IMG/VR virus record: IMGVR_UViG_3300010043_000003
Coordinates: 1-51,612 of that record
From: a virus
Taxonomy: Duplodnaviria; Caudoviricetes
Strand: one strand, 5' to 3'
DNA length: 51,612 nucleotides
The number at the start of each line of letters is the position of its first letter. Position 1 is the first letter of the stretch. A model generated the notes under the pieces. That model saw nothing but the letters and a program-made list of their open reading frames with translations, had not been told where the DNA came from and did not search any database. The translations under genes were made by a program, and so were the position numbers. Positions 1,748 through 22,771 of this stretch are shown here, piece after piece.

Positions 1748-1793
1748 ACCCATCGGGTCTGAGCGACACCTCAGCCGAAATCGTATTTACAAA

Positions 1794-1822
1794 TTGACGC
1801 ATATGCGTTTGCGCATTATGCT
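1794..1822 (+). promoter_or_regulatory. sigma70-type early promoter with overlapping palindromes
   Basis: TTGACG-N17-TATGCT, overlapped by ACGCATATGCGT and ATGCG-TTTG-CGCAT dyads (candidate operators). Confidence 0.65.
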
Positions 1823-1856
1823 TGCGGAAGCCGACATAACCCATGGAGGCTCCCCC

Positions 1857-2087
1857 ATGCCCGACATCATCACCATCGAAATCTGGCTCGCCGTCAACGA
1901 GGACGGCAATTTCCATCTCTGCACCGACAGCGCTAGCGACGCCCTTAACGAGCTGGTGAGTGAATATTCATCCGAGGCGGCGCGCGTAATCAAACTCACT
2001 GTCAACGTTCCGCGGCCGACGGTTCCTGACGTCAAAGTCGCTGTCCCCGAAATCGCTGGCGAGCCGGCGGTTGCGATCGAGGCCTGA
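1857..2087 (+). CDS. hypothetical protein (early operon)
   Basis: SD GGAGG before ATG 1857 (MPDIITIEIW); first gene of a tightly packed operon. Confidence 0.65.
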   Translation: MPDIITIEIWLAVNEDGNFHLCTDSASDALNELVSEYSSEAARVIKLTVNVPRPTVPDVKVAVPEIAGEPAVAIEA

Positions 2088-3483: not shown

Positions 3484-3762
3484 ATGGTCGTGGACAAGAT
3501 CATACGCGACATCATTCAGACGCAGGCCAAAGCGACGGAACGCGGCGCGCTTAGTATCTGGACCGTCTATGACAGGCCTAAAGACCATCCCGAAGGATTC
3601 ATAGCGCGGCAATTCGAAATCACCGCGGGGAGAGCAAAAGCGACCGACTCCCGACTCGTAGGACCGCTCGAGTCGATTCGCCACGCGCTCGGATCGGCGG
3701 GTCTCGTCTGTCTGCCGCGCCATCAGAACGACGAACCGCACGTCGTTGAGAGTTGGATATGA
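3484..3762 (+). CDS. hypothetical protein
   Basis: IWTVYDRPKDHPEGFIAR...GLVCLPRHQNDEPHVVESWI resembles a recurrent small phage family; exact start uncertain. Confidence 0.6.
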   Translation: MVVDKIIRDIIQTQAKATERGALSIWTVYDRPKDHPEGFIARQFEITAGRAKATDSRLVGPLESIRHALGSAGLVCLPRHQNDEPHVVESWI

Positions 3763-4022
3763 TGACCATGAAGATCGTTTTTCTCGACTCCGGCCGCGAG
3801 CCGAAATGCCCGGCTGACCCGGCCTTTCCGGACGGCATGGATGTCGACCTGTCGCACGGAGCGAGCGTATGCTGTCTCGTCAAGCTGCCCTACCCGGCAC
3901 CGCGCTGCGGCATTATGAGTGTCCGCTGCGAGAAATGCGGGCTCGTCAATATGGTCACCGTTGCCGGCCGCCGCGATGACCCGCGCTCGATCAAAATGGC
4001 TTGTGCGAGACTGGATGCATGA
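3759..4022 (+). CDS. Cys-rich hypothetical protein
   Basis: LPYPAPRCG...CEKCG; ATGA coupling on both sides. Confidence 0.6.
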   Translation: MMTMKIVFLDSGREPKCPADPAFPDGMDVDLSHGASVCCLVKLPYPAPRCGIMSVRCEKCGLVNMVTVAGRRDDPRSIKMACARLDA

Positions 4023-4471
4023 CGACCACCCTGCGCCGCTCCGACATCGCTCCCGATCAACCACTGCGCCTGCGCGTCGCCGCAGCCATTGCCTTTCCCG
4101 ATGGCTCGATGACCGAGCACGGCTTGAGGCACGAGGCAAAGAAGGGGCGCCTCGTCATCGAGCAGATCGCTAACAAAGACTACACCACCCTCGCTGCAAT
4201 CGAAAAAATGAGAGAATTATGCCGGCAAGATCAAAAGGGGCGCGTCTCTGGTTCCGTGAAGCACGACGTAACAAGCGAGGGCACATCACCCACCCCGCCG
4301 TCTACGTCATCCGCGACGGAGAATACCAGGAGAGCACTGAGTGCGGCGCGGATGACCTTGTCGGAGCTAACAAAAAACTTGAAGCCTACCTCAACAAAAA
4401 GCACACCGCCTCGATCGCGCAGAAAAAAAACGTCCGTGATCCCGCTGAAATTCCCATCGCCGACGTCCTGA
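4019..4471 (+). CDS. xis: excisionase / recombination directionality factor
   Basis: PLRLRVAAAIAFPDGSMTEHGLRHEAKKGRL...KDYTTLAAIEKMRELCR, a winged-helix Xis type, directly upstream of and overlapping the integrase. Confidence 0.7.
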   Translation: MTTTLRRSDIAPDQPLRLRVAAAIAFPDGSMTEHGLRHEAKKGRLVIEQIANKDYTTLAAIEKMRELCRQDQKGRVSGSVKHDVTSEGTSPTPPSTSSATENTRRALSAARMTLSELTKNLKPTSTKSTPPRSRRKKTSVIPLKFPSPTS

Positions 4472-5364
4472 ATCTCTACGCCCAAAAAGTGGTGCCGGAG
4501 ACTGGGCGGCCAAAGGAAAACGAACAGAAGATCACGCGCCTGCTCGATTACTTCGGCGACAAGCAGCTCTCTGACATCAACGGCGATTCGTGCCGAGCCT
4601 TCACGGCATCCCGCTCGACGCCTCTTGCAGCTCGTGAGGACCTGGTTGTGCTGCGAGCTGCGATCAATTTCCATCGCGAAGAAGGGCACTGCGAGAAGAT
4701 CGTCAGTGTCGTACTACCTGAAAAGGCGGTTGCCCGTGAGCGGTGGTGCGAGCCTGACGAGATCGCAAAATTGCTGCGAGCCGCGTGGCATTACCGGGAG
4801 GTCCAGAAGGGACAACCGACCGGCCGACGCTCTCGCAAGCACGTCGCCAAATTCATCCTGGTCGGCATCTACACCGGGACCCGCGCCGGTGCCATTTGTG
4901 CCGCCGCATTGCAGCCCACGATCGGCCACGGCTGGATCGATCTTAAGCGCGGCGTGTTCTATCGGCGCCCGGAGGGCGAGCGGGAGACCAAAAAGAAGAA
5001 GCCGCCGGTACCGCTACCCAAGCGGCTGCTGACGCATCTGCGACGCTGGCACGCCGCGGGGCAACGCTTTGTCGTCGAGTGGAACGGCGAACCCGTCAAG
5101 GACTGCGACAAAGCTTTCCGCAATGTCGCAATCGCAGCCGGGCTGCCCGACGTCACGCCCCACATTCTGCGCCACACGGCCGCGACCTGGATGATGCAGG
5201 CCGGCACCGACAAGTGGGAGGCGGCCGGCTACTTGGGTATGTCCGTCGAGACCCTCGAGCGCCACTACGGGCATCATCATCCGGATTTCCTCAAGAAGGC
5301 CGTCAATGCTTTCGATCGGCGCCCCCGCGCAACCGCCACAGCTTCGCCACTGAATAAACGGTGA
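4219..5364 (+). CDS. int: tyrosine integrase
   Basis: Catalytic motifs YTGTRAG (R), HILRHT (HxxR), LGMS and HYGH (Y); adjacent to attP. Confidence 0.95.
   Translation: MPARSKGARLWFREARRNKRGHITHPAVYVIRDGEYQESTECGADDLVGANKKLEAYLNKKHTASIAQKKNVRDPAEIPIADVLNLYAQKVVPETGRPKENEQKITRLLDYFGDKQLSDINGDSCRAFTASRSTPLAAREDLVVLRAAINFHREEGHCEKIVSVVLPEKAVARERWCEPDEIAKLLRAAWHYREVQKGQPTGRRSRKHVAKFILVGIYTGTRAGAICAAALQPTIGHGWIDLKRGVFYRRPEGERETKKKKPPVPLPKRLLTHLRRWHAAGQRFVVEWNGEPVKDCDKAFRNVAIAAGLPDVTPHILRHTAATWMMQAGTDKWEAAGYLGMSVETLERHYGHHHPDFLKKAVNAFDRRPRATATASPLNKR
5334..5352 (+). repeat. integrase arm-type sites (left arm)
   Basis: CGCCACAG and CGCCACTG in tandem inside the 3' end of int; same motif as the right arm. 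Confidence 0.65.
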
Positions 5365-8441: not shown

Positions 8442-9854
8442 TCAGTAATATTCTTCGACGACGATCAGACCGGAGCCGCCCCACCCGCCATTGCCGGACG
8501 ATACGCCCGCGACTCCCACGGTGTAGGGGTACGAACCAGGGGGGCTGAAAAATTCGACGTACTCACCCGCCCCGCCGCCGCCGCTTGACCCGATGGTGAC
8601 ATAGATGTTGCCGCCGCCGCTGCCGCCTGCGCCGCTGGACGGCGGCCCGTCGCCGCCGTTCGCGCCACCGAAACCAGAGCCACCCCCCGTACCTGTTGGG
8701 GTGGACCCCATACTTCCGTCGCTGGTCGATCCGGTATTGCCGTCACCGCCCTTCAATCGGTACACCAACACCCCGACGCCGTTGGAGCCTCCATAGCCAC
8801 CTGCGCCTCTGGCACCTCCGGAGTTGCTGGGCGCGCTCTGGCCGCCGCCGCCGGCGACGCAGCCCCAGCCGCCGAAAATCGTATTGCCGCCGGAGGTGCC
8901 GCTCGCAGCGCCCGCACTGCCGCCGGTCCCACCACCGGCAACCATGCGCACTCTGAGGTACGCCACGCCGGCCGGTGAGCTGTAGGTACCCGAGCCGGTC
9001 GTGAATCGCTGAACGGTCGGCATACGGTGCGCCGGGCCCGGCGGCCCTTGCTCGCCCTGCGGCCCCTGCGGGCCCGGCACGCCCTGCGGTCCCTGCGGGC
9101 CCGGCAGGCCCTGCGGCCCCTGCTGGCCCGGAACGCCCTGCGGCCCCTGCTGACCCTGCTGGCCCGGCTGACCCTGCACGCCAGGCGAGCCCTGCTGGCC
9201 CGGCTGACCCTGCGGCCCGGCGGGACCGGCAGGACCGACGATAGTCCCGGCATCGCCCCACGCCGAACCGTCCGACACCCACGCGTGGCCGGTGTCCTCG
9301 GTGATCCAGGCATCCCCGACGGCGGTCGTGCCGATCGGCGGCAGGTCGGCTACGCTCGGCACCGTGCCCTTAAAATTGATGCCGACGCCAGGCTGACCCT
9401 GCGGCCCGGCCGGACCCTGCGCCCCTTGCTGGCCCGCCACGCCCTGCTGGCCCTGCTGGCCCGGCATCCCCTGCGGGCCTGGCGCGCCCTGCGGCCCCTG
9501 CTGACCCTGCTGGCCCGGCACGCCCTGCGGCCCGGGCGGCCCGGGCGGACCTGGAACACCACCGCTGTCGGCTGCCACCCACTGGCTGCCGTCCCACGCC
9601 ATGAGCACATCGTTGCCGCTGTCCCACCACAACCGGCCGACATCCGGATCGGGGGGCGGCGTATCGCCGACGGATACCCCGATGAATTCGCGCACCGTCT
9701 GCGCCGTCACCGAATGCCACAGCGATTCGTAGGCCTCGTTGCGATCGAAGGGACCGCTGCGCGGTCGTTGCGGGACGCAGATGAAAAGCTCCGAGCCGTC
9801 GAGAGTCGTCCGTGCCGGCGAAGCCGGCAGGTGAGCGAGCCGCGGCCACCACAT
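8442..9854 (-). CDS. collagen-like fibre protein with a glycine-rich C-terminal domain
   Basis: Two G-X-Y tracts (GPQG/GQQG), WDGSQW motifs and an [14 protein letters not shown]...GGG C-terminal domain; start MWWPRL after GGGAG. Confidence 0.85.
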
Positions 9855-9870
9855 CGAATGTATCTCCCGA

Positions 9871-11073
9871 TCAGAAGGAAAACGTGGTGATGCTGCACCA
9901 GCCCGAGCCGCCGTCGCCGCCCGACTGAATGACTCCGGTCGAATCGGCAGCCGTGCTCGCGCCCGAGCCGCCGCTGCCCGAATTAGCCGGCGCGGCAGCA
10001 CCCGGATTGGTGCCGCCGCCGGTCAGCGACAACACATAGGTGCCCTCGGCCGCCCCGCCGCCGCCGCCGAACACCAGCGTCTCAACGCCGATCCGCGTCA
10101 CCGAGGCAACAAATCCGTTGGAGCCGCGCCGCACGACGTCGCCGACCTCGCCGACCGTGGTACCGCCCTGACCCGGCGAACCGAAATTAGGAATATCGCT
10201 GCCGAAAAATTCGCCCGCCTGGCCACCGCTGGCGACCACCAGAGACCCGAAGCTCGTCGGGCTTCCGTCCTGCGATCCGGCGCCGATCCCACCGGCACCG
10301 ATGGTGACCAGCTGACCGGCGCCGCCGATCTGGGCCGCCGTCAAAAGCCGTTCGGCGTAACCGCCGGAGCCGCCGCCACCGCCGCCGCCGTAGTCGGTCG
10401 GGTTGCCGGCCGCGCCGCCGCCACAACCGCCGCCGCCGCGGCATCGCACGATCGCCCACTGCAATCCGGCCGGCGGGATCCATTGGCCGGTCTGAGTGAT
10501 GAACTCGAAGCCGATCCGCGGCACGAGACCCGCCTGCTGCTGGGGCGTGCAGGCGATCACGTTGTTTCCCGTTGAATCGAAACAGAGCCCCATCCCCTTG
10601 ACCAGGTTCGCCGGCGGCAGCGGATCGGGCGGGACGACGTTGGCCGGGTTGGCGACGATCGCGCGCGCGAGCACATCGGCATTTTGCTGCATCGCCAGCA
10701 CGGCCCGGTCGACCGCGGTCTCGGCGCCGATGGCGAGCGTCTCGAGGCTGCCCTCGTTCTGCAGGCTAACCGGCTGGATCAGCGGCAATGTCCGCATGAT
10801 CGTCAGTGTGGCGCCCGGCGGGATCGGCAGCCCATGCGGCGCAAAGGTAACCGTACCGCCGAGACCCCAGACCGCGCCCGGCACCGGCTGATTGAGCATG
10901 AGCTGGTACTCGGTCGGACCTGGCCCTTGCGTCAGCGTCGTCTGATTGCCGTTTGCATCGGTGTAGAGCACCGAGATATGGGTCGGCGCAACGCCGATGA
11001 ATCCGAAACCGAAGACGGTCTGAGCGCCGGTACCTCCGACGACGACTCGGCTTGTCTGGTCGTTGACGGTCAT
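9871..11073 (-). CDS. tail fibre protein (T7 gp17-like N-terminal anchor, glycine-rich C-terminal domain)
   Basis: [22 protein letters not shown]...[11 protein letters not shown]...[13 protein letters not shown] matches the podophage fibre attachment pattern. Confidence 0.8.
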
Positions 11074-11882: not shown

Positions 11883-12104
11883 ATGCGCAGGCCCTCCACG
11901 TTCCCCTACCGGCCGACGGGCTTTAAGTGCCCGCACTGCGGCTGCACGCTGATGCGTTACCGCGGCAATTACGCGGGCAACCAGAAATACCGAAACGACG
12001 TCCAATGCGGCGGTTCCGGTTGCTATCGCTGGTCGGAACTCCCGTCCGACAGCCCGTTTTACATCCCCGAGCCAGCGGAGGCCGACGATGCCGCGTCCTC
12101 CTGA
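11883..12104 (+). CDS. Zn-ribbon protein
   Basis: CPHCG...CGGSGC. Confidence 0.55.
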   Translation: MRRPSTFPYRPTGFKCPHCGCTLMRYRGNYAGNQKYRNDVQCGGSGCYRWSELPSDSPFYIPEPAEADDAASS

Positions 12105-13068
12105 AGGCTACCGCAACCGCGCCGGGCAGCAGGTCCCCGGCGTTCACGACATTACCAACGCCTACATGCCCAAGCCCGCCCTCGTGGGCTGGGCCTATAA
12201 CCGCGGCAAGCAGGGCCTGCCGCTCTACGAGAAGGGCGCGCTCGACATCGGCACCGCCGTGCATGCGATGGCCGAGCTACACCTCAAAGGCGACAGCGAT
12301 CGCGAGATCGAAGCTAAGCTGAAGGAGCTTGGCCCTCTCGACCGCGCCAAGGCGCAAGCGGCCTATGGCGCGTTCTGCGAGTGGCGGGAACATTTCCGCT
12401 GCAAGTCGCTCGCCCACGAGGTTACGATCGTCTCGGAGACCTACCAGCTGGGCGGCACGCCCGACTGCATCGCCGAAATCTCAGGCGAGATCGGTCTCCT
12501 TGATTTCAAGACTTGCACCACGGTTCCGCGGGCACCCTACTACGAGCAACTGCTCGCGATGGCGGCGCACGCGACGTTATGGAACGAGCGGCATCCCGAG
12601 CGGAAGATTCACTCCTGCCACATCATCTACCTGCCCAAGGACGGCTCGACCCCCAAGCACCACGCCTATGCGAACTACGAGACGCAGTGGCGGGAGTTCG
12701 CGTGTCTGCTCGCGGCGTTCGCCGCCAAGAACGGCACGCCCAAGCCGGTCGAGGTCACTCGTGATCCCGAGCTAGTCGCCGAGCTCGCCCGCCTCAAGGC
12801 TGAGCTGCAGGCCTCCGCCGCCGCCGAGGCCGGCAAAACGTTGCGGGCGTTCGCACCGCCGCCGCCACCGCGCAAGCATGTGGGCAAGGGGACGCAGCTC
12901 ACGCTGGACATCGAGGCCGGCACGCGCCCGCCAGCCAACGTCGTCCCGCTGCGCCCGCCGGTCGACAGCATCCCTGAATTTCTGCAGCGCAAGAGGCCAG
13001 CGGCGCCGTCAGTCAAGCCCCGCGTGCGTCTGCGCGCGGACGGCTCGTGGTTCTACGTCAAGGGGTAG
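12088..13068 (+). CDS. PD-(D/E)XK exonuclease (Cas4/YqaJ/RecE-like) with a low-complexity C-terminal tail
   Basis: GTAVHAMAE, HEVTI, GGTPDCI, LLDFKT, QLLAMAAH. Confidence 0.85.
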   Translation: MPRPPEGYRNRAGQQVPGVHDITNAYMPKPALVGWAYNRGKQGLPLYEKGALDIGTAVHAMAELHLKGDSDREIEAKLKELGPLDRAKAQAAYGAFCEWREHFRCKSLAHEVTIVSETYQLGGTPDCIAEISGEIGLLDFKTCTTVPRAPYYEQLLAMAAHATLWNERHPERKIHSCHIIYLPKDGSTPKHHAYANYETQWREFACLLAAFAAKNGTPKPVEVTRDPELVAELARLKAELQASAAAEAGKTLRAFAPPPPPRKHVGKGTQLTLDIEAGTRPPANVVPLRPPVDSIPEFLQRKRPAAPSVKPRVRLRADGSWFYVKG

Positions 13069-14416: not shown

Positions 14417-17400
14417 TTATCTGATCGGCGCGGGCTCGCCGGTGATCTTCTCCCGGCGGGCCAGCGCCGCGTCGCGCGCGATCTGCGGATGGCGGGCAAA
14501 CATCGCCCCGATCGCCACCTCGCGCGACTGCCGCAAGGTCTCCTCCATCACATAGTGCTTCTGCCATGCCGGCCAGGTCCGCCAGTCCGGCGAGCGCACG
14601 AACATGTCGAGGCGCTGGTGCAGCAGGCGGCCGGCGAGCGTCGCGAACTCGGTGTACTGCTCGTCGGTGAGCTCGACGTTGCGGATCTTGCGCTCGGGCA
14701 TCGCCGGCTTGAAATTGTAGTCGAGCGCCGCCTGCCGCACCGGATCGCGGTTGACCTGCTGCTCGTAGATCGAGGTGCCCGGGACCGCGGTCGGCCCCGG
14801 CATCGGCTCGCCGTAGATATTGATGCGCGGCTGCAGGTACTGCGACTGGCCGGGTATGCGCTGCAGGATGGCGTCCATCACGGTGCGGGCCTGCCGCGTG
14901 TAGGGATCGGCGGCGCGGTTCATCTGGTACATGCCGACGGAAAACGGCATGAAGGCGCCGACCATGTTCTTTAAGTAGTTCTCGCCATAGCGGCCGGGGT
15001 CCTCGACGGCCTTGATGAGGTCGCTTGGCCCCTTCATGAAAGACTCGTCGAGGATGTTCTGAGTAATCGCGTGCTGCAGATGCGCGGCCGCGCTCAGGGC
15101 GTCGCCCTCGGAAATATCGCGCGCCACCTCGTAGAGGTCGGCGGCGATACCGAGGTGCATGCCGAGCGAGCCCAGCCGGTTCATCTGGTACCACATGTTG
15201 CCGATCTTGACGCTGTGCGGCTGGTAGACCTCGCGCCAGGCGCGGGCCTGGTTGGGGTCGCTCGGCCCCGAACCGGTGATGTAGCCCTCCATCGCCAGCG
15301 AGCCGAACGTGATCGCCAGCGCGGTGCCGGCCAGCATGCGCGCCGTCGTGGTGTCCTGGGCGATGTTGCCGTTGCGGCCCATCAGATCGTCGCGGATGGC
15401 CTGCGACAGGATGCCAACGGGCGTGCGCTGGATAACGGTTTTTGAAATGACATTGGCGCCAATATGCACAAATGGGTCGATGAACTTCATCGGCTTGGTG
15501 AGACCGAGCAACGGCAGGTTGAACTCGGCATTGAGGAGCGCGGACAGCCGTCTGACGAACTCGCCACCCGGCGCCATCAGCGAGGCAGCATAGGCCCTCT
15601 CGTGAACCGCCTTCATCCATTCCACCGGCGGATCATTGAGCCGGCGGGCGATATGCTCGGCGCGCTCGCTGCCCTCGAGGCCTCTGCCTTTCTGCGCGGG
15701 ATCGAACCGAAACCCATTCGGATCAGTCGCCTCCCGATAGGCGAGCGCCGCGGTCTCGGCCCGCTCGTTGGTCACCACGTCCATCGAATGGATTGCCGAG
15801 ACGACCCGGCCCGGAGCTCGCACCAGGCTGCCGACCGGCAGCACCGGCACGCCGCGCAGCGTGATGTCGGGGATCTGGCCGCCCGGCGTAAAGTGCGCGC
15901 CGACGAGCGGCGTGCCGGCACGGCCGCCCGCAGCAATCAGCGCGGCACCGCCGAGGATGCCGTCCTGCAGACCCTTCATCGCCCCGAACAGATCGCCGAA
16001 AAATTCCCCGTAGGTGACCGGGGCGGGCTGCATGGTGCGTCCGATATAGAGCTGGGTATCGCCGAGGAACGGCGTCGCCGGCACCGCCTCCTGGCCGGGC
16101 AATAGCACCGGCCGGCCGGTACGCAGACCCTCGAGGCCGGCCTGCCAGCGCTTGGGAAGGTTCTGCAGGATGGCCTGCTCGCGCGCCCCCAGCTCGCCGA
16201 GGTAGACCCGCTCGCCCACACGACCGAGCGCCTGGCGGGTCAGACCGATGCCGGCGGCGACCGGCACCTCGATCAGCGTCTGGAACTGCCGCTCGATCTT
16301 ATTGCCGATGTAGTAGGTGCCGTGGGTCAACGGTCCCGAAATCAGGTTGTTGACGAAATACTCAAGCAGCATTCCGCCGAACGAACGCTTGCGGGCGTCG
16401 CGCAAGTATTTCGCCACCTGCGCCTGGGTCTTGAGCTGGGCGCCGAGCACCGCCTCCATCTTGAGCTGGAACAGGTCGGAACCGGTGCGGTTCCTGACTA
16501 CCTGGGTAAGCCCCAGCCGGCGCACCTCGTCCCAGCCGTCCATGTTGCCGAAGGCACGACCGGTGCGGCCCCACTCGGTGCTGACCGAGGAGAGCACCGA
16601 CATGAACATGTCGAAGCGGTCGCGCTCCTTGGCATATTCGGCGACCAGGTCGGCCATCGGCCCCTCGACGGCACCGAACCGAGCAGTAGCGCCCTGCCCG
16701 GCGTCCATGTCGCGGATGCGCCGCATCAAGTCACCGACGCGCTCGGCCTGCTCGCGCACCGCCATCCGGAAGGCGAGCACCTTCTTGCCGAGGTCCTTGA
16801 TGCCGCCGAAAGCGCGCTCGAGCATCGAGAGGGTCAGGGTATCGGGATCAAACCCCATGGCCTCGGCGGCGTCGCGCATCTGTCCGCGGGTCAGCGGCTC
16901 GTCGGTGCCGGGAATGCGATCCTTCGATTCCTCGATCGCTTCCATGAACTGCGGAACCGAGGTGATGTTCTCGGTGCGGACGTTGTTCTTCTTGCCTACG
17001 TTGAAGGTTTCTCGTCCCTCGAGGGTGTCGGCAGGTCCTGGGGCGAGGGGCTGGTCGTCGAGGTGGGCCCGGCTCTCCTCTGCTGCAGCAGGTGCTGCAG
17101 GGGCTGTCCCGCGTCCCGCCACGCCTTCGCCTTCTCGAGCAGGCGGAACGAGGCGTTCACGCTCGTCACCAGGTCCCGGTAATACGCCGCCTGCTCCGGG
17201 GTGAGCTTCCCGCTGCGGAGCGCCCGCTGGTATCGCTCCAGCTCCTCCCGGCACTCCGCCTCCTTCTCCTCCAGGCTGAGTTGCGACCTCGGTCTCGGCG
17301 TCTGGTCGGGCATTGGGATTTACTTCATGAGCAGTTCTGCGTTCGGCAGCTACCCGATCAGCGGCCGGTTCGGCATGCTGCGGTTCGATGAGGGCGGCAT

Positions 17401-20400
17401 CCTCCCGATGGGTGCCAGCCATCGAAGGCGCATGCTCGCGCTCCGGCGTAATGACGGTCCATCGCAGTTCCTCCGGCGTCTCGTAGAGATGACCGTACAC
17501 CTCGCGCATACGGTCGGTCAGCTCGATTCTTTCGGGCCCTCCCGTCTCCGCCGATTCACGCTCGAGCCCCTGCAGGCCATCGTAGAGGTCGCGCAGGTAG
17601 GTGTAAAACATCTTAAAGATGCGGGCCAGGGCGGCCGACGGCGCCCGGCCTTCCATCCGCCAGGCCTCAAAGCCGCGGGCGAATTTCTCGTGGAACCCGC
17701 GCGCCCTGTCGGTCCACGCCCCGCGCGCCGTCCGCTCGAACAGCTCGGATTGGTTCTTCGCCCCCAGCCATTCGAGGGCGGCAGCCCAGTCGTCCTTGAG
17801 CCACTGCGGGGCACGTTCGTGGACCGCATCGCGGGCGAGCTCGAACAGAAACTGGTGGGCCTTTTCGTGGCCGGGCGTCGAGACGTTCTGCTCCGGTGAC
17901 AGGCGCTCGACCGGACGCTGGCCGGCGGCGATCTCCTCGGGCGTGCGGGGAGAGAATCTGCCGCGGACGATCTGGCCGCCGCGCTGCTCTAAGCCTTCGC
18001 CCTCAGATGGGCGAAGGCCTTTCGCGCGTAGTCGCTCGCCTCTTTCGCGTCTTGCCTTAGCGACGCTATTTCGGAGGGCGTCAGCATCTCGGATACCGAG
18101 GAGGTACTCGGTTTCCGAGGCGGTGAGGGCGCCGGGTTCGATGCCGAGTTCTTGTCTGACTGATTCACCGAGATTCTTCTCCAGCGACCGGGTCCGCGCG
18201 GGCCTGGCAACTATATCCTCCGTCCTGCCGGCATTTGCAAGGGTGACGATGCCGGCAACTTCGCCGCCCCCCTCCTGAATGTGGTGCGCAAGCTCGGCGA
18301 GCGTATTGCCCATGGTGGTGACGTCGTCGACCAGGACGTAGCGGCGGCCCGGTTCCACCGGCCCGTCGAAACCCGGACGGGCAACCAGACGCTCCAGCGG
18401 ACGCATGCCGGTATGGTAGGCCCGCGATGCCTGGACGATATCTTCGGCAACCTCGCCGCCGGTCGCAGCCGCATAATAGTGCGCCAGCGTCATCGGGATT
18501 TTGTTGCGTCCCGCAGCCTCTTCCGCGTGGACCGGAACAAAGACGGCGTCGGAACCGAACCTCCGACGCGCCGCCTCGAGCGTCGCCGGCCTGACGGTCT
18601 GCACGACGAACTGGCGCGCCGCTTCCGAATCTCCGGCCTTGGCCGCCTCATAATGGGGATTGGACGTCATCTCGCTGACGTCGCGATAGGACGAAACGAC
18701 AGGCTCGGCGGATGCCGGAATGCCTCTTGTTCTGGGTCTTTGCGGCGCGGCAGCGCGCTGCTCAAGTTCTATTTCTTGGGAAGGCCTTGCTCCTTCTCCT
18801 TGCGCTCCTTCCACTCGCGGAAGTGCCGCTCCAGGGCCTCCTCGTTGAGCGGCTTCGGATTCGGCGGGTCCGGGTCCTCTGCCCACGGCGCGTATTGCTG
18901 CCTCAATTCGTTCATCCGAAATGCCTCGCTTGCGCGCCAGATCACCAAAAGCACCGGCATAATCGACGTTCAGGAAGCCGGTACCCTCACCCCCCATCTT
19001 GGCATATAATTCTTTCTCGGGATACCACCATATCGCCTGAAGGTCGGCATTAGTGACATGGATGCCTTCCCCGGCGAGAAGCTCGCGGGCACGGTTGACG
19101 CGCTCGCGAATCCATTGGCGTTCGGCGCCGCCCCTCGGCTGCTCCCTGATGCCGTACCGCCCGTGCAGATAGCTTTCGGCGGCAAGCGTGAGTTCCGATT
19201 TGACGCTCTCGCCGCTGTCGTAGAGCGCGCGATTTTCAGCAAAGTCCCGTTCGTGCGTCTTGACGATGTCCCCCGCCGCGCGGTCCAGACCATCGGCGCG
19301 GGCCGGCATCTTGCGCCCCTCTTCGCGCAACGCTGTCACAAGACGCTCGCGCTGCTCCGCCAGCCCCTCCTCGGAGGCCGTATCCATCAGCGTACCGGTG
19401 AGGCGACCCCACGCGCGCATGAACCACAGGTCCACGGTCACCGGATCGTAGTTGTTGTTTAAGTTCTGATAAAAGCCGCCGCCGATCTTGGGACCGAGAA
19501 TCGTCGAGCCGCGGACGTTGGCGCTCTTCAGTTCGCCGGTGATCTTCTGGCCAAAGACCTTCTCGAGATCGCGCACGGTGAATTCCTGTGCGAGGAACTC
19601 GCGCGCATAATCGGGACCGCCCTTGCGAAGCAGCTGGTTGAGTTTCGCAAAATTCTTGTTCATCGCCGGGCCATTCTTGGCGTTGACCGCGGTCGGAAAC
19701 TCACCGTAATTCGTCCCCTTCTGGGTATGGTTCTTGTAATAGTCGTAAGCCCACTCGGCGAGGCGGACATTGTTCGGCACCCGCTCGCCCTGGCTGGTGA
19801 TGGCGAGTGCCGCCGTGAATGCAAAGCGCGCGTTGGGCTCGGTCGCGATCTCGGGATGAATGAGCGAGGCAATGGCGATCGCCTGCTCGATCTTTTGCGT
19901 ATACCAGGTCGAAGCGCCGCCGCCGCGATCGATCTCGGTTTTGATCTCGCCGGCGATCGTGCGCGAGAGGATTTCGTCGGTGACCGGATCAGGACCGGTA
20001 ACCTTGCCGCCGCGCACCCCCATGGCACGAAGCGCTGCAAGACCGCGATCGCGCAATTCGCGGGCGATCACATCGACCGTGCGTGACCGTGGCGGATGCG
20101 CCGGTTCTGCTTCAAAGATCGGCGTCGCACTCAGCGCGCGCTCAAGCGGATGTGACCCCAACGGCTGGCCGCGAGCTTCAGCGAGATAACTGCCGGTCGG
20201 CGCACCGCGCTGGGTGAACTCGGCTTCCTCCTCCGCCGTCAGCCTGGTGGCCTGCCGTGCGGCGAGCTCCTCCGCGGTAAGTTGCCTCGTCTCCTCGCCT
20301 CCCCGCTCCGCCGCGGTCAGCTCGCCCGGCACCTCGCGGGCCGGCGCCCTGCCGGGAGGATAGACGCCCTCGGCCTCGAAATTCTTGTCCCGCGCCTGCG

Positions 20401-22771
20401 CGATCGCCTCCTCGACCTCGCGCATGGTCGGCTTGCGCCCGCCAAAAAACGCGTTGAGCTGACCGTCCTGGATAATGAGATCGAGCGGCTTGCCCTCGCC
20501 CTCCCTGGCGAACAGCCAGCCGACGCCGCCGACCAAATGATTCCTGTCCTCGAACATCGCCTTGAGGTCGGGCGTCGGCCGCACCTTGATGTCGGCGAGA
20601 AACTGCAGGATCGACGGATTGGCGATCGGCGCCCGCGGCGCCCGCGGCGCGACTTCGCCTGTCGGCGGCTGCCGCGAGCGCTGGCCGGCCCGCAGTATCT
20701 CCGCCGATTCGGCGCGGTAGAGGCGGTCCGGATTGCCGGGATCGAGGTAGGTGGAGCGCAGCCGGTAGCGCGCCGCCATATCGACGCCCTCGATGTCGGC
20801 GAGGGCCTTGGGCGTGCCGGTGCGCACCAGCTGATAGGAATAGTGGGCGGCGATGTCCTTAAGCTGCAGATCGAGCGGCTTGACGGCCGGCGCCGGCGCC
20901 TCCGGCTCCGGGGCCCGCGCTTCGGCGCGGGCCTGTGCCTCGCGACGAGCCGCGGCCATCTCCGCGTCGTACTCGGTTTCGATCTTTCTACGTTGCGCCT
21001 CCCGTTCGGCTCTCTTTTCCGCGATCTGCTCCTCGCTCAGGCCTTGCCGACGATAGGCAGCCTCGAGCTGAGCCTCGTTTACTTCCTGGAACCTGCGCAG
21101 TCCGGGCAGCATCTCCGGCTCCTCGGCCGGCCGCGCCTCTGTGACGGGTGCCTCTGTGACCGGTGCCGCGGCGGCAGGCCTGAATCCAGGCTCGACCGGC
21201 GGGTGTTCGACGACTTCGGCCCCGTGCCGCTCGGCCGCCTCCCGCAACGCCAGGTTAACCCTGGGGCTCAGCCTGCCGATGTCGTTGTCGATGCGGGCGA
21301 GCTCCTGACGGGCCGCGACCAGATCGGCGGTCTGCTCCGCCCGGCCCTCCGTAAACGCCTGCCGGCGCTCATTAAGCCGCTGCAGCTCGCCCTCGGCGAT
21401 GCGCAGGTCGGCCCGCAGCTGTCGCCCGCGAAGACCGGGATAGGTAGGATTGGCCGCGAGGTGGGCGTCGAGCTGGCGCTGGATGTCGTCGCGGACGCCG
21501 GTGGCGGTAGCGATCGCCTCGTCGGGCGGGTTGTTGATGTCGTTGATGGTTCTCTGCAGCTCGCGATAGCGCTGCCGCAGGCCATCGAACTCTTCGAACA
21601 GGTCGGGATGGGCCGCCCGCGCCGCCGCATCGACCCGCGCCGCCTCCTCGGGCCCGCGACCGAGGACAGAGATCTCCAGCTGGCGCTGCTCGGTCGCCGC
21701 CTGCTGCGATTCGGGGCTGCGCTGCTGCGAGCCCTGGTGGGTGGCCTCGGTATTGCCCGGCCCCATCACGCCAACGTCGTTGGCCTCCGCCACCGTCACC
21801 GGCAGATTCTTGCCGAGGCGCTGGTGCTCGAGGATCACCCGATCCCATTCCGCCCGGGTCACGCCCGTCGGCGGCGGCCCGGCCTTCTCCAGCGCCTCCG
21901 CCTCGGCCGCCGTCAGCTGCTGCATCCCCTCACGGAACTGCGCTGTGCGGGCGGCCTCGGCCTTCTGAGCGGCCTCGGCAGCGGCACGCTCCGCCTCGGC
22001 CCTCCGGGCGGCCTCGGCGGCAGCACGCACCGCTTCCGGCTCCGGCCGGCCGAGCAGCTGCCGCACCGGCATTCCGCCCATTTTCTCGAGCGTCTGGCCG
22101 ATCGGATTGGTGCGGTTGAATACGACGCCGAACCCGGTCGAGATGGCAATCTTTGCCCAATCGGGCTGCTCGCCGGCGAGCTTCTCCTGGCCCAGCTCGA
22201 GGCCGCCCATGACGGCGCCGGAGAACACCCGTGACGTCAGCGGATTGGCCAACACCCGCTGCAGACCGGTGAGATTCTTGATCCCCTCGTCGGCGCGGAA
22301 GCCGCCCGGCTTCATGGTCAGCGCGAACGGCGCCAGGCCACCGAGGAACGACGCCGTGCCGTGATACTGCTCGTCGAGCTTCTGCTGGCGATCGTCCATG
22401 CCGATCTTCTCGGTCCAGGACGCCGGCAGGTGCGACAGCGCGAAATCCTGCGCCTTGCCGCCGAGGTAGCCGCCACCGAGCCCGCCGATGATGCCGCCGG
22501 CCAGCATGCCCGGCACGCCGGCAAAGGAAAGCGCCTCGGCGCCGGCCGCGGCCGTCGGCAGCGAGAATATCGTCGGCACGAGGCTGCGCTCGGCGCCGCG
22601 CGCAAAGGCGCCAACGGCGGAGGTCTGAGCCTGCTCCCAGGTGCGATCGAACCCGATCGCCTTCTGGTCCGGGAACGGATCGAGGTCCGAAAACGGATCA
22701 TTACGGCGTTCGTGCGCCGGCCGCGCCGGAGCGCCGAGCTGCGGATCAATATCGTCGAAGGGGTCGGCCAT
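14417..22771 (-). CDS. large polyvalent internal virion (ejection) protein, 2784 aa
   Basis: Last internal-virion gene. Contains a glycosylase-like domain (ITSQG...GPKIGGGFYQNL...VTVDLWFMR), a PRTase domain (YVLVDDVTTMGNTL), an HExxH metallopeptidase (GHEKAH...HEKFARGFE) and an LPD38-like C-terminus. Confidence 0.85.
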   Translation of the reverse strand: MADPFDDIDPQLGAPARPAHERRNDPFSDLDPFPDQKAIGFDRTWEQAQTSAVGAFARGAERSLVPTIFSLPTAAAGAEALSFAGVPGMLAGGIIGGLGGGYLGGKAQDFALSHLPASWTEKIGMDDRQQKLDEQYHGTASFLGGLAPFALTMKPGGFRADEGIKNLTGLQRVLANPLTSRVFSGAVMGGLELGQEKLAGEQPDWAKIAISTGFGVVFNRTNPIGQTLEKMGGMPVRQLLGRPEPEAVRAAAEAARRAEAERAAAEAAQKAEAARTAQFREGMQQLTAAEAEALEKAGPPPTGVTRAEWDRVILEHQRLGKNLPVTVAEANDVGVMGPGNTEATHQGSQQRSPESQQAATEQRQLEISVLGRGPEEAARVDAAARAAHPDLFEEFDGLRQRYRELQRTINDINNPPDEAIATATGVRDDIQRQLDAHLAANPTYPGLRGRQLRADLRIAEGELQRLNERRQAFTEGRAEQTADLVAARQELARIDNDIGRLSPRVNLALREAAERHGAEVVEHPPVEPGFRPAAAAPVTEAPVTEARPAEEPEMLPGLRRFQEVNEAQLEAAYRRQGLSEEQIAEKRAEREAQRRKIETEYDAEMAAARREAQARAEARAPEPEAPAPAVKPLDLQLKDIAAHYSYQLVRTGTPKALADIEGVDMAARYRLRSTYLDPGNPDRLYRAESAEILRAGQRSRQPPTGEVAPRAPRAPIANPSILQFLADIKVRPTPDLKAMFEDRNHLVGGVGWLFAREGEGKPLDLIIQDGQLNAFFGGRKPTMREVEEAIAQARDKNFEAEGVYPPGRAPAREVPGELTAAERGGEETRQLTAEELAARQATRLTAEEEAEFTQRGAPTGSYLAEARGQPLGSHPLERALSATPIFEAEPAHPPRSRTVDVIARELRDRGLAALRAMGVRGGKVTGPDPVTDEILSRTIAGEIKTEIDRGGGASTWYTQKIEQAIAIASLIHPEIATEPNARFAFTAALAITSQGERVPNNVRLAEWAYDYYKNHTQKGTNYGEFPTAVNAKNGPAMNKNFAKLNQLLRKGGPDYAREFLAQEFTVRDLEKVFGQKITGELKSANVRGSTILGPKIGGGFYQNLNNNYDPVTVDLWFMRAWGRLTGTLMDTASEEGLAEQRERLVTALREEGRKMPARADGLDRAAGDIVKTHERDFAENRALYDSGESVKSELTLAAESYLHGRYGIREQPRGGAERQWIRERVNRARELLAGEGIHVTNADLQAIWWYPEKELYAKMGGEGTGFLNVDYAGAFGDLARKRGISDERIEAAIRAVGRGPGPAESEAAQRGGPGAALPRVEGAQGEGARPSQEIELEQRAAAPQRPRTRGIPASAEPVVSSYRDVSEMTSNPHYEAAKAGDSEAARQFVVQTVRPATLEAARRRFGSDAVFVPVHAEEAAGRNKIPMTLAHYYAAATGGEVAEDIVQASRAYHTGMRPLERLVARPGFDGPVEPGRRYVLVDDVTTMGNTLAELAHHIQEGGGEVAGIVTLANAGRTEDIVARPARTRSLEKNLGESVRQELGIEPGALTASETEYLLGIRDADALRNSVAKARRERGERLRAKGLRPSEGEGLEQRGGQIVRGRFSPRTPEEIAAGQRPVERLSPEQNVSTPGHEKAHQFLFELARDAVHERAPQWLKDDWAAALEWLGAKNQSELFERTARGAWTDRARGFHEKFARGFEAWRMEGRAPSAALARIFKMFYTYLRDLYDGLQGLERESAETGGPERIELTDRMREVYGHLYETPEELRWTVITPEREHAPSMAGTHREDAALIEPQHAEPAADRVAAERRTAHEVNPNARPDAETEVATQPGGEGGGVPGGAGAIPAGAPQREAHPGAGGVLPGPGDERERLVPPAREGEGVAGRGTAPAAPAAAEESRAHLDDQPLAPGPADTLEGRETFNVGKKNNVRTENITSVPQFMEAIEESKDRIPGTDEPLTRGQMRDAAEAMGFDPDTLTLSMLERAFGGIKDLGKKVLAFRMAVREQAERVGDLMRRIRDMDAGQGATARFGAVEGPMADLVAEYAKERDRFDMFMSVLSSVSTEWGRTGRAFGNMDGWDEVRRLGLTQVVRNRTGSDLFQLKMEAVLGAQLKTQAQVAKYLRDARKRSFGGMLLEYFVNNLISGPLTHGTYYIGNKIERQFQTLIEVPVAAGIGLTRQALGRVGERVYLGELGAREQAILQNLPKRWQAGLEGLRTGRPVLLPGQEAVPATPFLGDTQLYIGRTMQPAPVTYGEFFGDLFGAMKGLQDGILGGAALIAAGGRAGTPLVGAHFTPGGQIPDITLRGVPVLPVGSLVRAPGRVVSAIHSMDVVTNERAETAALAYREATDPNGFRFDPAQKGRGLEGSERAEHIARRLNDPPVEWMKAVHERAYAASLMAPGGEFVRRLSALLNAEFNLPLLGLTKPMKFIDPFVHIGANVISKTVIQRTPVGILSQAIRDDLMGRNGNIAQDTTTARMLAGTALAITFGSLAMEGYITGSGPSDPNQARAWREVYQPHSVKIGNMWYQMNRLGSLGMHLGIAADLYEVARDISEGDALSAAAHLQHAITQNILDESFMKGPSDLIKAVEDPGRYGENYLKNMVGAFMPFSVGMYQMNRAADPYTRQARTVMDAILQRIPGQSQYLQPRINIYGEPMPGPTAVPGTSIYEQQVNRDPVRQAALDYNFKPAMPERKIRNVELTDEQYTEFATLAGRLLHQRLDMFVRSPDWRTWPAWQKHYVMEETLRQSREVAIGAMFARHPQIARDAALARREKITGEPAPIR
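16996..17313 (-). CDS. nested out-of-frame ORF after the metallopeptidase domain
   Basis: Helical-looking LSLEEKEAECREELERYQRAL...; third codon positions almost all G/C in this frame, while the host frame uses GGA/ATA/GCT. Confidence 0.6.
   Translation of the reverse strand: MPDQTPRPRSQLSLEEKEAECREELERYQRALRSGKLTPEQAAYYRDLVTSVNASFRLLEKAKAWRDAGQPLQHLLQQRRAGPTSTTSPSPQDLPTPSRDEKPST
17989..18168 (-). CDS. nested out-of-frame ORF after the PRTase domain
   Basis: GGAG-N10-GTG start (alternative ATG 18087); MLTPSEIASLRQDAKEASDYARKAFAHLRAKA; the host frame here uses AGA/CGA/CTA/TTA. Confidence 0.5.
   Translation of the reverse strand: MNQSDKNSASNPAPSPPRKPSTSSVSEMLTPSEIASLRQDAKEASDYARKAFAHLRAKA
18769..18915 (-). 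CDS. nested out-of-frame ORF after the glycosylase-like domain
   Basis: GAGG-N8-ATG; MNELRQQYAPWAEDPDPPNPKPLNEEALERHFREWKERKEKEQGLPKK; high GC3 in this frame. Confidence 0.55.
   Translation of the reverse strand: MNELRQQYAPWAEDPDPPNPKPLNEEALERHFREWKERKEKEQGLPKK

Follow-up and report, generated by a model that had tools for sequence, protein, structure and literature searches.

Candidate +1-frame partner genes nested in a polyvalent virion protein and their relatives in phages and plasmid kfrC

Polyvalent proteins are large virion-associated proteins that link unrelated enzymatic domains (Iyer et al. 2017, PMC5512222). The same paper describes phosphoribosyltransferase (PRTase) and HExxH metallopeptidase (MPTase) domains of mobile elements and calls the role of the PRTase enigmatic. 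In the MuF polymorphic toxins a small cognate open reading frame (ORF) directly follows the toxin domain of a virion-loaded effector (Jamet et al. 2017, PMC5576092), and in the Rpn intragenic antitoxins a small inhibitor is translated within the toxin gene (Zhong et al. 2023, PMC10327210). For the plasmid protein KfrC/TraN, a role as a switch in stability and conjugation has been described (Mitura et al. 2021, PMC8124265). The virus record IMGVR_UViG_3300010043_000003 (Caudoviricetes), whose full 51,612 nucleotides are called the window here, has a structural module of podophage type, in which one gene (host ORF, 14417..22771, minus strand) encodes a polyvalent internal virion protein. This protein of 2784 amino acids joins unrelated glycosylase-fold, PRTase and HExxH domains, and three small ORFs, termed N1, N2 and N3, are found within its gene.

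An earlier note on this DNA had proposed that the gene is a series of domain-plus-inhibitor cassettes. Conservation and co-occurrence sustain this for the PRTase with N2 and for the glycosylase-like domain with N1, and not for HExxH. It is reasonably probable that two exchangeable cassettes lie in the gene, one with a KfrC-like PRTase and one with a glycosylase-fold domain, and that each enzyme is followed by a conserved +1 gene likely to encode its binding inhibitor. Judged from sequence, the nested N1 and N2 frames are conserved independently of the host frame and travel with their domain. In the co-occurrence check that the earlier note had suggested, each of these two mini-ORFs goes with its domain in both search directions, including as a free downstream gene. 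For both, a small cognate gene is found right after an effector domain, with orphan copies, as in polymorphic toxins.

Nested frames of the window and the PRTase-N2 pair

All three ORFs occupy the same shifted frame, +1 of the host ORF on the same strand, as first described. N1 (18769..18915, minus strand; alternative ATG at 18960) encodes 48 residues with an APWxxDPD motif and an amphipathic helix. N2 (17989..18168, minus strand; alternative ATG at 18087) encodes 59 residues from a GTG start behind GGAGA, with an S/P/T-rich arm and then an LTPSEIxSLRQ helix. N3 (16996..17313, minus strand) encodes 105 residues, likely a helical hairpin with an S/P/T tail. In the window, N1 and N3 are preceded by at most a weak Shine-Dalgarno (SD) sequence. 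None of the three mini-proteins matched a family in Pfam, PHROG, NCBIfam, PADLOC or PDB. The idea that each ORF lies in a linker directly 3' of a domain does not hold for N2, which overlaps the last ~60 codons of the PRTase domain, or for N3, which lies ~47 codons after HExxH, behind a conserved scaffold segment.

The codon signal reported earlier was recovered. The GC content of third codon positions (GC3) is 0.34, 0.57 and 0.53 in the host frame at N1, N2 and N3, and 0.86, 0.73 and 0.90 in +1. GGA, AGA, CTA, TTA and ATA codons are enriched in the host frame at these sites (10/50, 5/61 and 14/107, versus 32/2566 elsewhere), and the host text there is rich in G, R, A and P (0.60, 0.43 and 0.60, versus 0.38 elsewhere). 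Codon-usage log-odds for host/+1 are -0.87/+0.22 at N1, -0.55/+0.35 over the first 80 codons of N3, and -0.20/-0.08 at N2, where the shift is modest; the scaffold core gives +0.39/-0.26. The 14 lowest-scoring 80-codon segments of the host ORF are all at or adjoining N1, N2 and N3. An open +1 frame is by itself unremarkable in the window (P 0.34-0.94 given the host residues); it is codon bias and conservation that carry the case.

The PRTase cargo domain (17999..18733, minus strand; host residues 1347-1591) has a DDVTT motif at residue 1482. It matches PF00156 below the cut-off (E 3.6e-5) and phrog_22413 at E 1e-56; a DD motif for binding phosphoribosyl pyrophosphate (PRPP) and homology across the domain place it in a KfrC-like clade of type I PRTases. 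It is homologous to KfrC/TraN of IncP-1 and IncU plasmids at about 34-37% identity, with query coverage of 80% or more in 141 plasmid records. Screening gave 208 profile hits, of which 194 were long enough, 158 non-redundant and 156 provided with the anchor column; two frameshifted loci, L067 and L068, were retained. The earlier proposal implied a nested frame that stays uninterrupted in homologues, and the N2 frame is stop-free in 154 of these 156 loci, which are interrelated and so not independent trials, versus 16.4 ± 3.6 expected from synonymous resampling; the stretch compared spans up to 46 codons around the motif. In 48-codon windows from the rest of the domain, no more than 7-61 of ~155 loci lack a stop. 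The conserved N2 motif is LTxSEIxxLR. In LTxSEIxxL the L, E and L are present in +1 in 153, 152 and 152 loci, and they fall on host third positions with GC3 of 0.01-0.02. Third-position identity is 0.70 in the N2 motif compared with 0.39 in the PRPP motif. An ATG is found within 36 codons upstream of the motif in 149/156 loci, and an SD-like word before a start in 131/156 (a loose definition, with no null).

The host frame ends inside N2 in 54 of the 156 loci and within 30 residues after it in 33; it continues for 31-300 residues in 23 and for more than 300 in 45, and one locus is truncated. N2 is thus an old overlap with the PRTase tail, fully nested once the domain is internal. A shift of the PRTase frame close to its end is seen in L067 and L068, and in L068 the host frame runs into N2; this could be an assembly error or a natural fusion.

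An N2-motif scan of IMG/VR that was blind to the host frame gave 40 matches, 32 of them in +1 of a PRTase. Orphan N2 (~1750-1905, plus strand, in L304; at the motif in L331 and L340) is kept where MuF_C (L304) or LPD3 (L331, L340) takes the PRTase position; in L304, compared with L322, MuF_C replaces the PRTase on a kept scaffold, as expected of the exchangeable effectors of polymorphic toxins. Free N2 orphans are also seen in two prophage-like contigs (L306, L316). In Moraxella phage Mcat8, N2 is an annotated separate gene of 39 residues (AKI27356) after a MuF-type PRTase gene. A separate immunity-type gene after a C-terminal effector is found in some homologues such as Mcat8, and is not the layout of the window, with its internal domains and +1 partners.

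The N2 frame is also hidden within kfrC of plasmids RP4 and RA3, and a strong SD precedes its start in RP4, pEIB202 and RA3; in RP4 this start is at kfrC codon 208. A +1 gene with SD, not annotated, is present in kfrC/traN of pUZ8002 (RP4-derived; L025:3093-3263), RA3 (L356:4311-4472), pEIB202 and other IncP plasmids (further loci L023, L024 and L026). No nested gene in kfrC is mentioned in the accessible text of PMC8124265 or in the plasmid record annotations. R751 is without both PRTase and N2 in a search with a positive control. Its likeness to RP4 KfrC begins at residue 263 and N2 stops at codon 264, a pattern that reads as co-loss of the two.

Published work on RA3 bears on function. KfrC of RA3 slows growth, and a DDT-to-AAA change abolishes the slowing; kfrC1-249 was not clonable under tacp (PMC8124265). 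RA3 N2 runs from an ATG at 4311 to a stop at 4470-4472, and the 3692-4438 fragment drops its last 11 codons, among them residues matching predicted contacts 52-56. Since the kfrC1-249 cut removes the end of N2, the cloning failure would fit a clipped inhibitor.

Complex prediction, proposed in the earlier note for domain and mini-ORF together, supports binding of N2 to the PRTase. The model of the PRTase with N2 residues 20-59 scored 0.86, and the best of three controls 0.02; the level of 0.86 is reached by 116/157 solved complexes and 2/215 mismatched pairs, counts that are only rough with the alignments made here. Runs share at least 80% of contacts, with partner pLDDT of at least 78. The confident N2 contacts are predicted on PRTase residues 34-40, 67-71, 76-104, 118-124 and 235, with the N2 helix placed beside the PVHAEE, GRNKIP and IVQ segments. 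The stretch of the PRTase whose DNA is overlapped has one confident contact only (residue 235). Contacts are thus almost wholly outside that stretch, which argues against a shared-nucleotide artefact. A sequence search found no similar solved complex.

The glycosylase-fold domain and N1

The second cargo domain (18962..20074, minus strand; host residues ~900-1270) carries GPKIG and VTVDLW motifs, and its AF2 model has a pLDDT of 82. In a VIA structure search the best row was 3n0u (Z 10.8, rmsd 4.6, 197 aligned), and the top 23 rows were all helix-hairpin-helix (HhH) enzymes, which indicates an HhH-GPD fold, with Z moderate for a helical protein. Foldseek against PDB gave no match. Base-excision chemistry is not fixed by this predicted fold. 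Viral structural relatives of the domain include proteins named for polyvalent domains.

The N1 locus set comprised 100 hits, 96 with the anchor and 61 non-redundant, and the N1 profile (cut-off 12 bits) was built from 34 of the 61, for which it is circular. The N1 family follows the glycosylase-like domain in 45/61 loci (nested in 19, overlapping the tail in 14, free in 7 and fused in frame in 5) and was not detected at 12 bits or more in the other 16; it is thus free or tail-overlapping in 21/61. In 32 loci the host continues for at least 300 residues. Sixteen of these have the +1 N1 motif, where 0.39 would be expected from resampling in the same 16; the remainder comprise 3 fusions, 11 loci in two other +1 families recognized by eye, one possible further ORF, and L268 with nothing. 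The two other families at the N1 position (L274, L277-L280 and L285-L287; L295, L297 and L298) suggest partner replacement or deep divergence. In 14 nested loci, motif identity is 0.49 in +1 versus 0.31 in the host frame; among the bases, the +1 third position is the most variable. A reverse scan of IMG/VR with the N1 motif gave 13 matches, all following a glycosylase-like domain; 10 were contigs already found and 2 were cut near the contig start.

The in-frame fusions (L247, L250 and L257, also L011 and L228) include three in which an ATG immediately precedes the motif and may be an internal start of the Rpn kind. The predicted fold of the natural fusion L247 has an N1 helix of pLDDT 86-97 and a motif of ~41, with no contacts.

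N3, the scaffold and other +1 frames

The C-terminus of the host protein matches an internal virion protein family (phrog_6651, E 4e-23), and the adjoining genes encode capsid, portal and tail proteins. By Pfam and PHROG annotation the 51.6-kb record has terminase, portal, capsid, tail and internal virion genes and an integrase, and it is therefore probably a temperate podophage. From the internal virion PHROG and the structural-module context, the host protein would be packaged and delivered with the genome. Pfam, PHROGs and NCBIfam gave no match to a MuF domain in it, a remote form being possible. The window also contains a tyrosine integrase (4219-5364, plus strand), a collagen-repeat ORF (8442-10001, minus strand) and a weak PD-(D/E)XK nuclease match (12088-13068, plus strand). 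Antisense ORFs across the region were regarded as shadow frames, as a GC-rich gene produces them, and left out of account.

The conserved C-terminal scaffold core (14420..16996, minus strand; phrog_6651) is common to 19 relatives at 29-57% identity. The HExxH zincin-like domain (17453..17914, minus strand; HEKAH motif at host residue 1635) is present in 18 of the 19, and was matched in 48 phage records including BPP-1 Bbp10. The glycosylase-like and PRTase profiles matched none of the 19 relatives, several of which match GNAT or ART-PolyVal instead. From this distribution the glycosylase-like and PRTase domains are exchangeable cargo and HExxH is scaffold. An HExxH-N3 cassette, as originally suggested, finds no support in this scaffold role or in the other HExxH hits: among 11 non-redundant ones (10 loci, some with little 3' sequence), none shows a nested signal, whether as a GC3 dip or as an N3 match, and a cognate pair was rejected. 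The claim that each domain has a mini-gene was overstated, for N3 follows the scaffold core, not the HExxH peptidase. Self-processing roles have been proposed for these peptidases (Iyer et al., PMC5512222), and such a role would need no antidote.

N3 is probably a genuine gene linked to the scaffold position. One homologue, P0140, is a called protein of 77 residues (49% identity, E 5e-11); a stronger hit by E-value, a 16-stretch repeat protein, was discounted. Leaving out two relatives that have an insertion and one without HExxH, the linker of the 16 other scaffold relatives, known as protein only, is 20-35% glycine, and in 12 of the 16 one column has H, N, D or Y followed by a residue with a G-starting codon, versus 5% background, the pattern of a +1 ATG. 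Back-inferred +1 compatibility scores partly reflect host-frame homology and were not used as evidence. In L358, the single DNA relative, a +1 ORF ends at the same place before the core, ~200 codons after HExxH, with no significant similarity to N3 (E 4.5). Against 7030 alternative-frame segments N3 matched only itself, and no shared hairpin family was established. A class-level genome search gave 0/401, two other searches gave 1/401 and 1/151 (the same genome), several further homologue searches gave no match, and the best atlas score, 0.77, was uninformative. A +1 ATG-AAG-TAA (17320-17328, minus strand) lies just before the N3 start, near the ATG-compatible residue pair of the relatives; the N3 start may have moved, or N3 may be coupled to this mini-ORF. 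One sigma-70-like site (17579-17607, minus strand) lies ~270 bases upstream of N3, no more than chance would give (0.3 expected).

Other +1 ORFs were surveyed in 182 non-redundant ORFs of at least 700 codons from loci recruited through these domains. The codon-shift threshold was passed by 36 candidates, all of them in +1; the +2 frame, which gave none, serves only imperfectly as a control where genes are GC-rich. Six of the 36 lie within the first 70 codons and are tails of upstream genes; the remaining 30 are all in the 125 domain-bearing ORFs and none in the 57 other long ORFs. Their upstream domains include InPase and GNAT by Pfam name, and most are unnamed. A conserved 71-residue +1 ORF directly after an InPase domain (downstream of L108:1776-2600 and L208:2481-3305) has the strongest codon-shift scores. 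A recurrent unnamed GG(L/I)RD-like domain, seen by eye, lies upstream of several helical-hairpin +1 ORFs (L052, L185, L196, L205, L211, L358). Further +1 ORFs follow methyltransferase-like (L082, L213), ParB-associated-like (L060, L073, L088) and GNAT-like regions (L002, L219), labels given by eye except for GNAT in L219. One record (L299, PQ492659.1) is labelled Inoviridae, yet has 39 kb and a 3125-residue polyvalent virion-type gene.

Mechanism, alternatives and relation to known systems

In the proposed mechanism a domain-plus-partner pair, lacking the stop codon of the domain, would have been taken into the virion-protein gene, so that the partner DNA would now be read in frame 0 as a G/E/A/R/P-rich linker. 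Ribosomes would still start the partner in +1 from an internal ribosome-binding site. In the producing cell or lysogen the enzymes would be kept inactive by the small proteins, which would not enter the virion; once packaged, the polyprotein would arrive in the next cell ahead of any newly made inhibitor, and orphans would give protection against related elements. Toxicity of the effectors and its neutralization by the partners would agree with the motif-dependent toxicity of the homologous PRTase (PMC8124265) and with the predicted binding.

Several observations weigh against partners that inhibit. The PRPP-binding loop (residues 135-144) is not part of the confident interface, and the model thus gives no clear sign of inhibition. 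In RA3, kfrC1-249 could be obtained in pBGS18 and in CyaA fusions, and full-length kfrC, with N2 intact, still slows growth on overexpression (PMC8124265); loss of the C-terminal dimerization domain explains the failed cloning equally well. Because the 156 N2 loci are related, the stop-free test overstates independence, and 8 of the 40 N2-motif matches are without PRTase (3 with MuF_C/LPD3, 2 free orphans, 1 unclear, 2 chance-like). For N1, the glycosylase-like domain of L268 has intact motifs and no mini-ORF, and the structural neighbour 8z2m modifies phage DNA rather than attacking it.

The mini-proteins might instead be real binding partners that act as chaperones, activators or packaging and unfolding aids, which is rather unlikely. 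An interface beside the PRPP loop, the in-frame fusion of N1 in 5/61 loci, and the occurrence of N3 at a scaffold position without an obvious toxin would all suit such a role; orphan N2 genes, however, persist without PRTase, three of the five N1 fusions have an ATG just before the motif, and truncation of RA3 N2 coincided with more, not less, apparent toxicity. It appears highly improbable that ribosomal frameshifting leads into the +1 frames as alternative C-terminal tails of shortened polyproteins, or that they are translational-coupling elements only. Starts of their own are kept (149/156), often with a strong SD, free downstream forms exist in either frame, and no shared slippery site was noticed, though no search was aimed at one; yet all three ORFs share +1 with stops that would truncate the polyprotein, in-frame N1 fusions exist, and the host frame of L068 itself runs into N2. 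Least probable of all are silent relics of captured downstream genes, open only since the linker tolerates them. The poor SD before N1 and N3, the ATG-AAG-TAA before N3 and the likelihood of a chance open frame given the host residues are compatible with relics, but nested polyprotein loci conserve the +1 motif better than the host frame, with the +1 third position least conserved, and +1 conservation holds across domains only ~35-60% identical.

If the inhibitor reading is true, it would explain how several internal effector domains can stand in one virion protein without poisoning the producing cell, and how cassettes are swapped without a stop codon. It would offer a direct way to test the enigmatic PRTase of mobile elements, and an overlooked gene inside kfrC of RP4/RK2 and RA3 would alter the reading of published kfrC truncations. 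A nested partner would mark the upstream domain as an effector, a rule for searches, and such partners would be candidate peptide inhibitors, here of a PRTase and a glycosylase-fold enzyme. Somewhat short of an even chance is given to the broader proposal that polyvalent proteins are cryptic toxin-immunity arrays whose G/E/A/R/P-rich linkers, called disordered, are generally immunity genes translated in the wrong frame. Phages, prophages and broad-host-range plasmids would then share a class of genes that lacks annotation, with kfrC of RP4/RK2 and RA3 a hidden single-locus toxin-antitoxin pair.

The PRTase has a weak match to ShosT over the PRPP motif only (PADLOC E 0.003) and none outside it; ShosT is a PRTase-like defence toxin whose antitoxin is a separate DprA-like gene. 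Natural same-strand nested genes this conserved seem to be rare in bacteria and phages. Compared with the polyvalent proteins described so far, the window differs in its nested partners, of which the accessible passages of PMC5512222 give no example; the word "overlap" is absent from its main text. The PRTase-N2 pair of Mcat8 has the layout of MuF toxins (PMC5576092). Those toxins have a C-terminal toxin and a separate ORF, whereas here the domains are internal, several per gene, and the partner is overprinted in +1. RpnS is in frame and is the toxin's own C-terminus (PMC10327210); in contrast, all three ORFs of the window lie in +1, and N1 and N2 are unrelated in sequence to their domain. KfrC/TraN shares a homologous PRTase domain, motif-dependent growth inhibition and the same hidden N2 frame, but is presented as a stability and conjugation switch, the nested gene going unmentioned in the text available (PMC8124265). 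The logic is shared with known polymorphic toxin-immunity pairs (PMC5576092) and with intragenic antitoxins (PMC10327210). Neither the out-of-frame multi-cassette architecture nor the hidden kfrC gene turned up among the papers covered by the full-text searches or in the accessible passages of PMC5512222 and PMC7414963.

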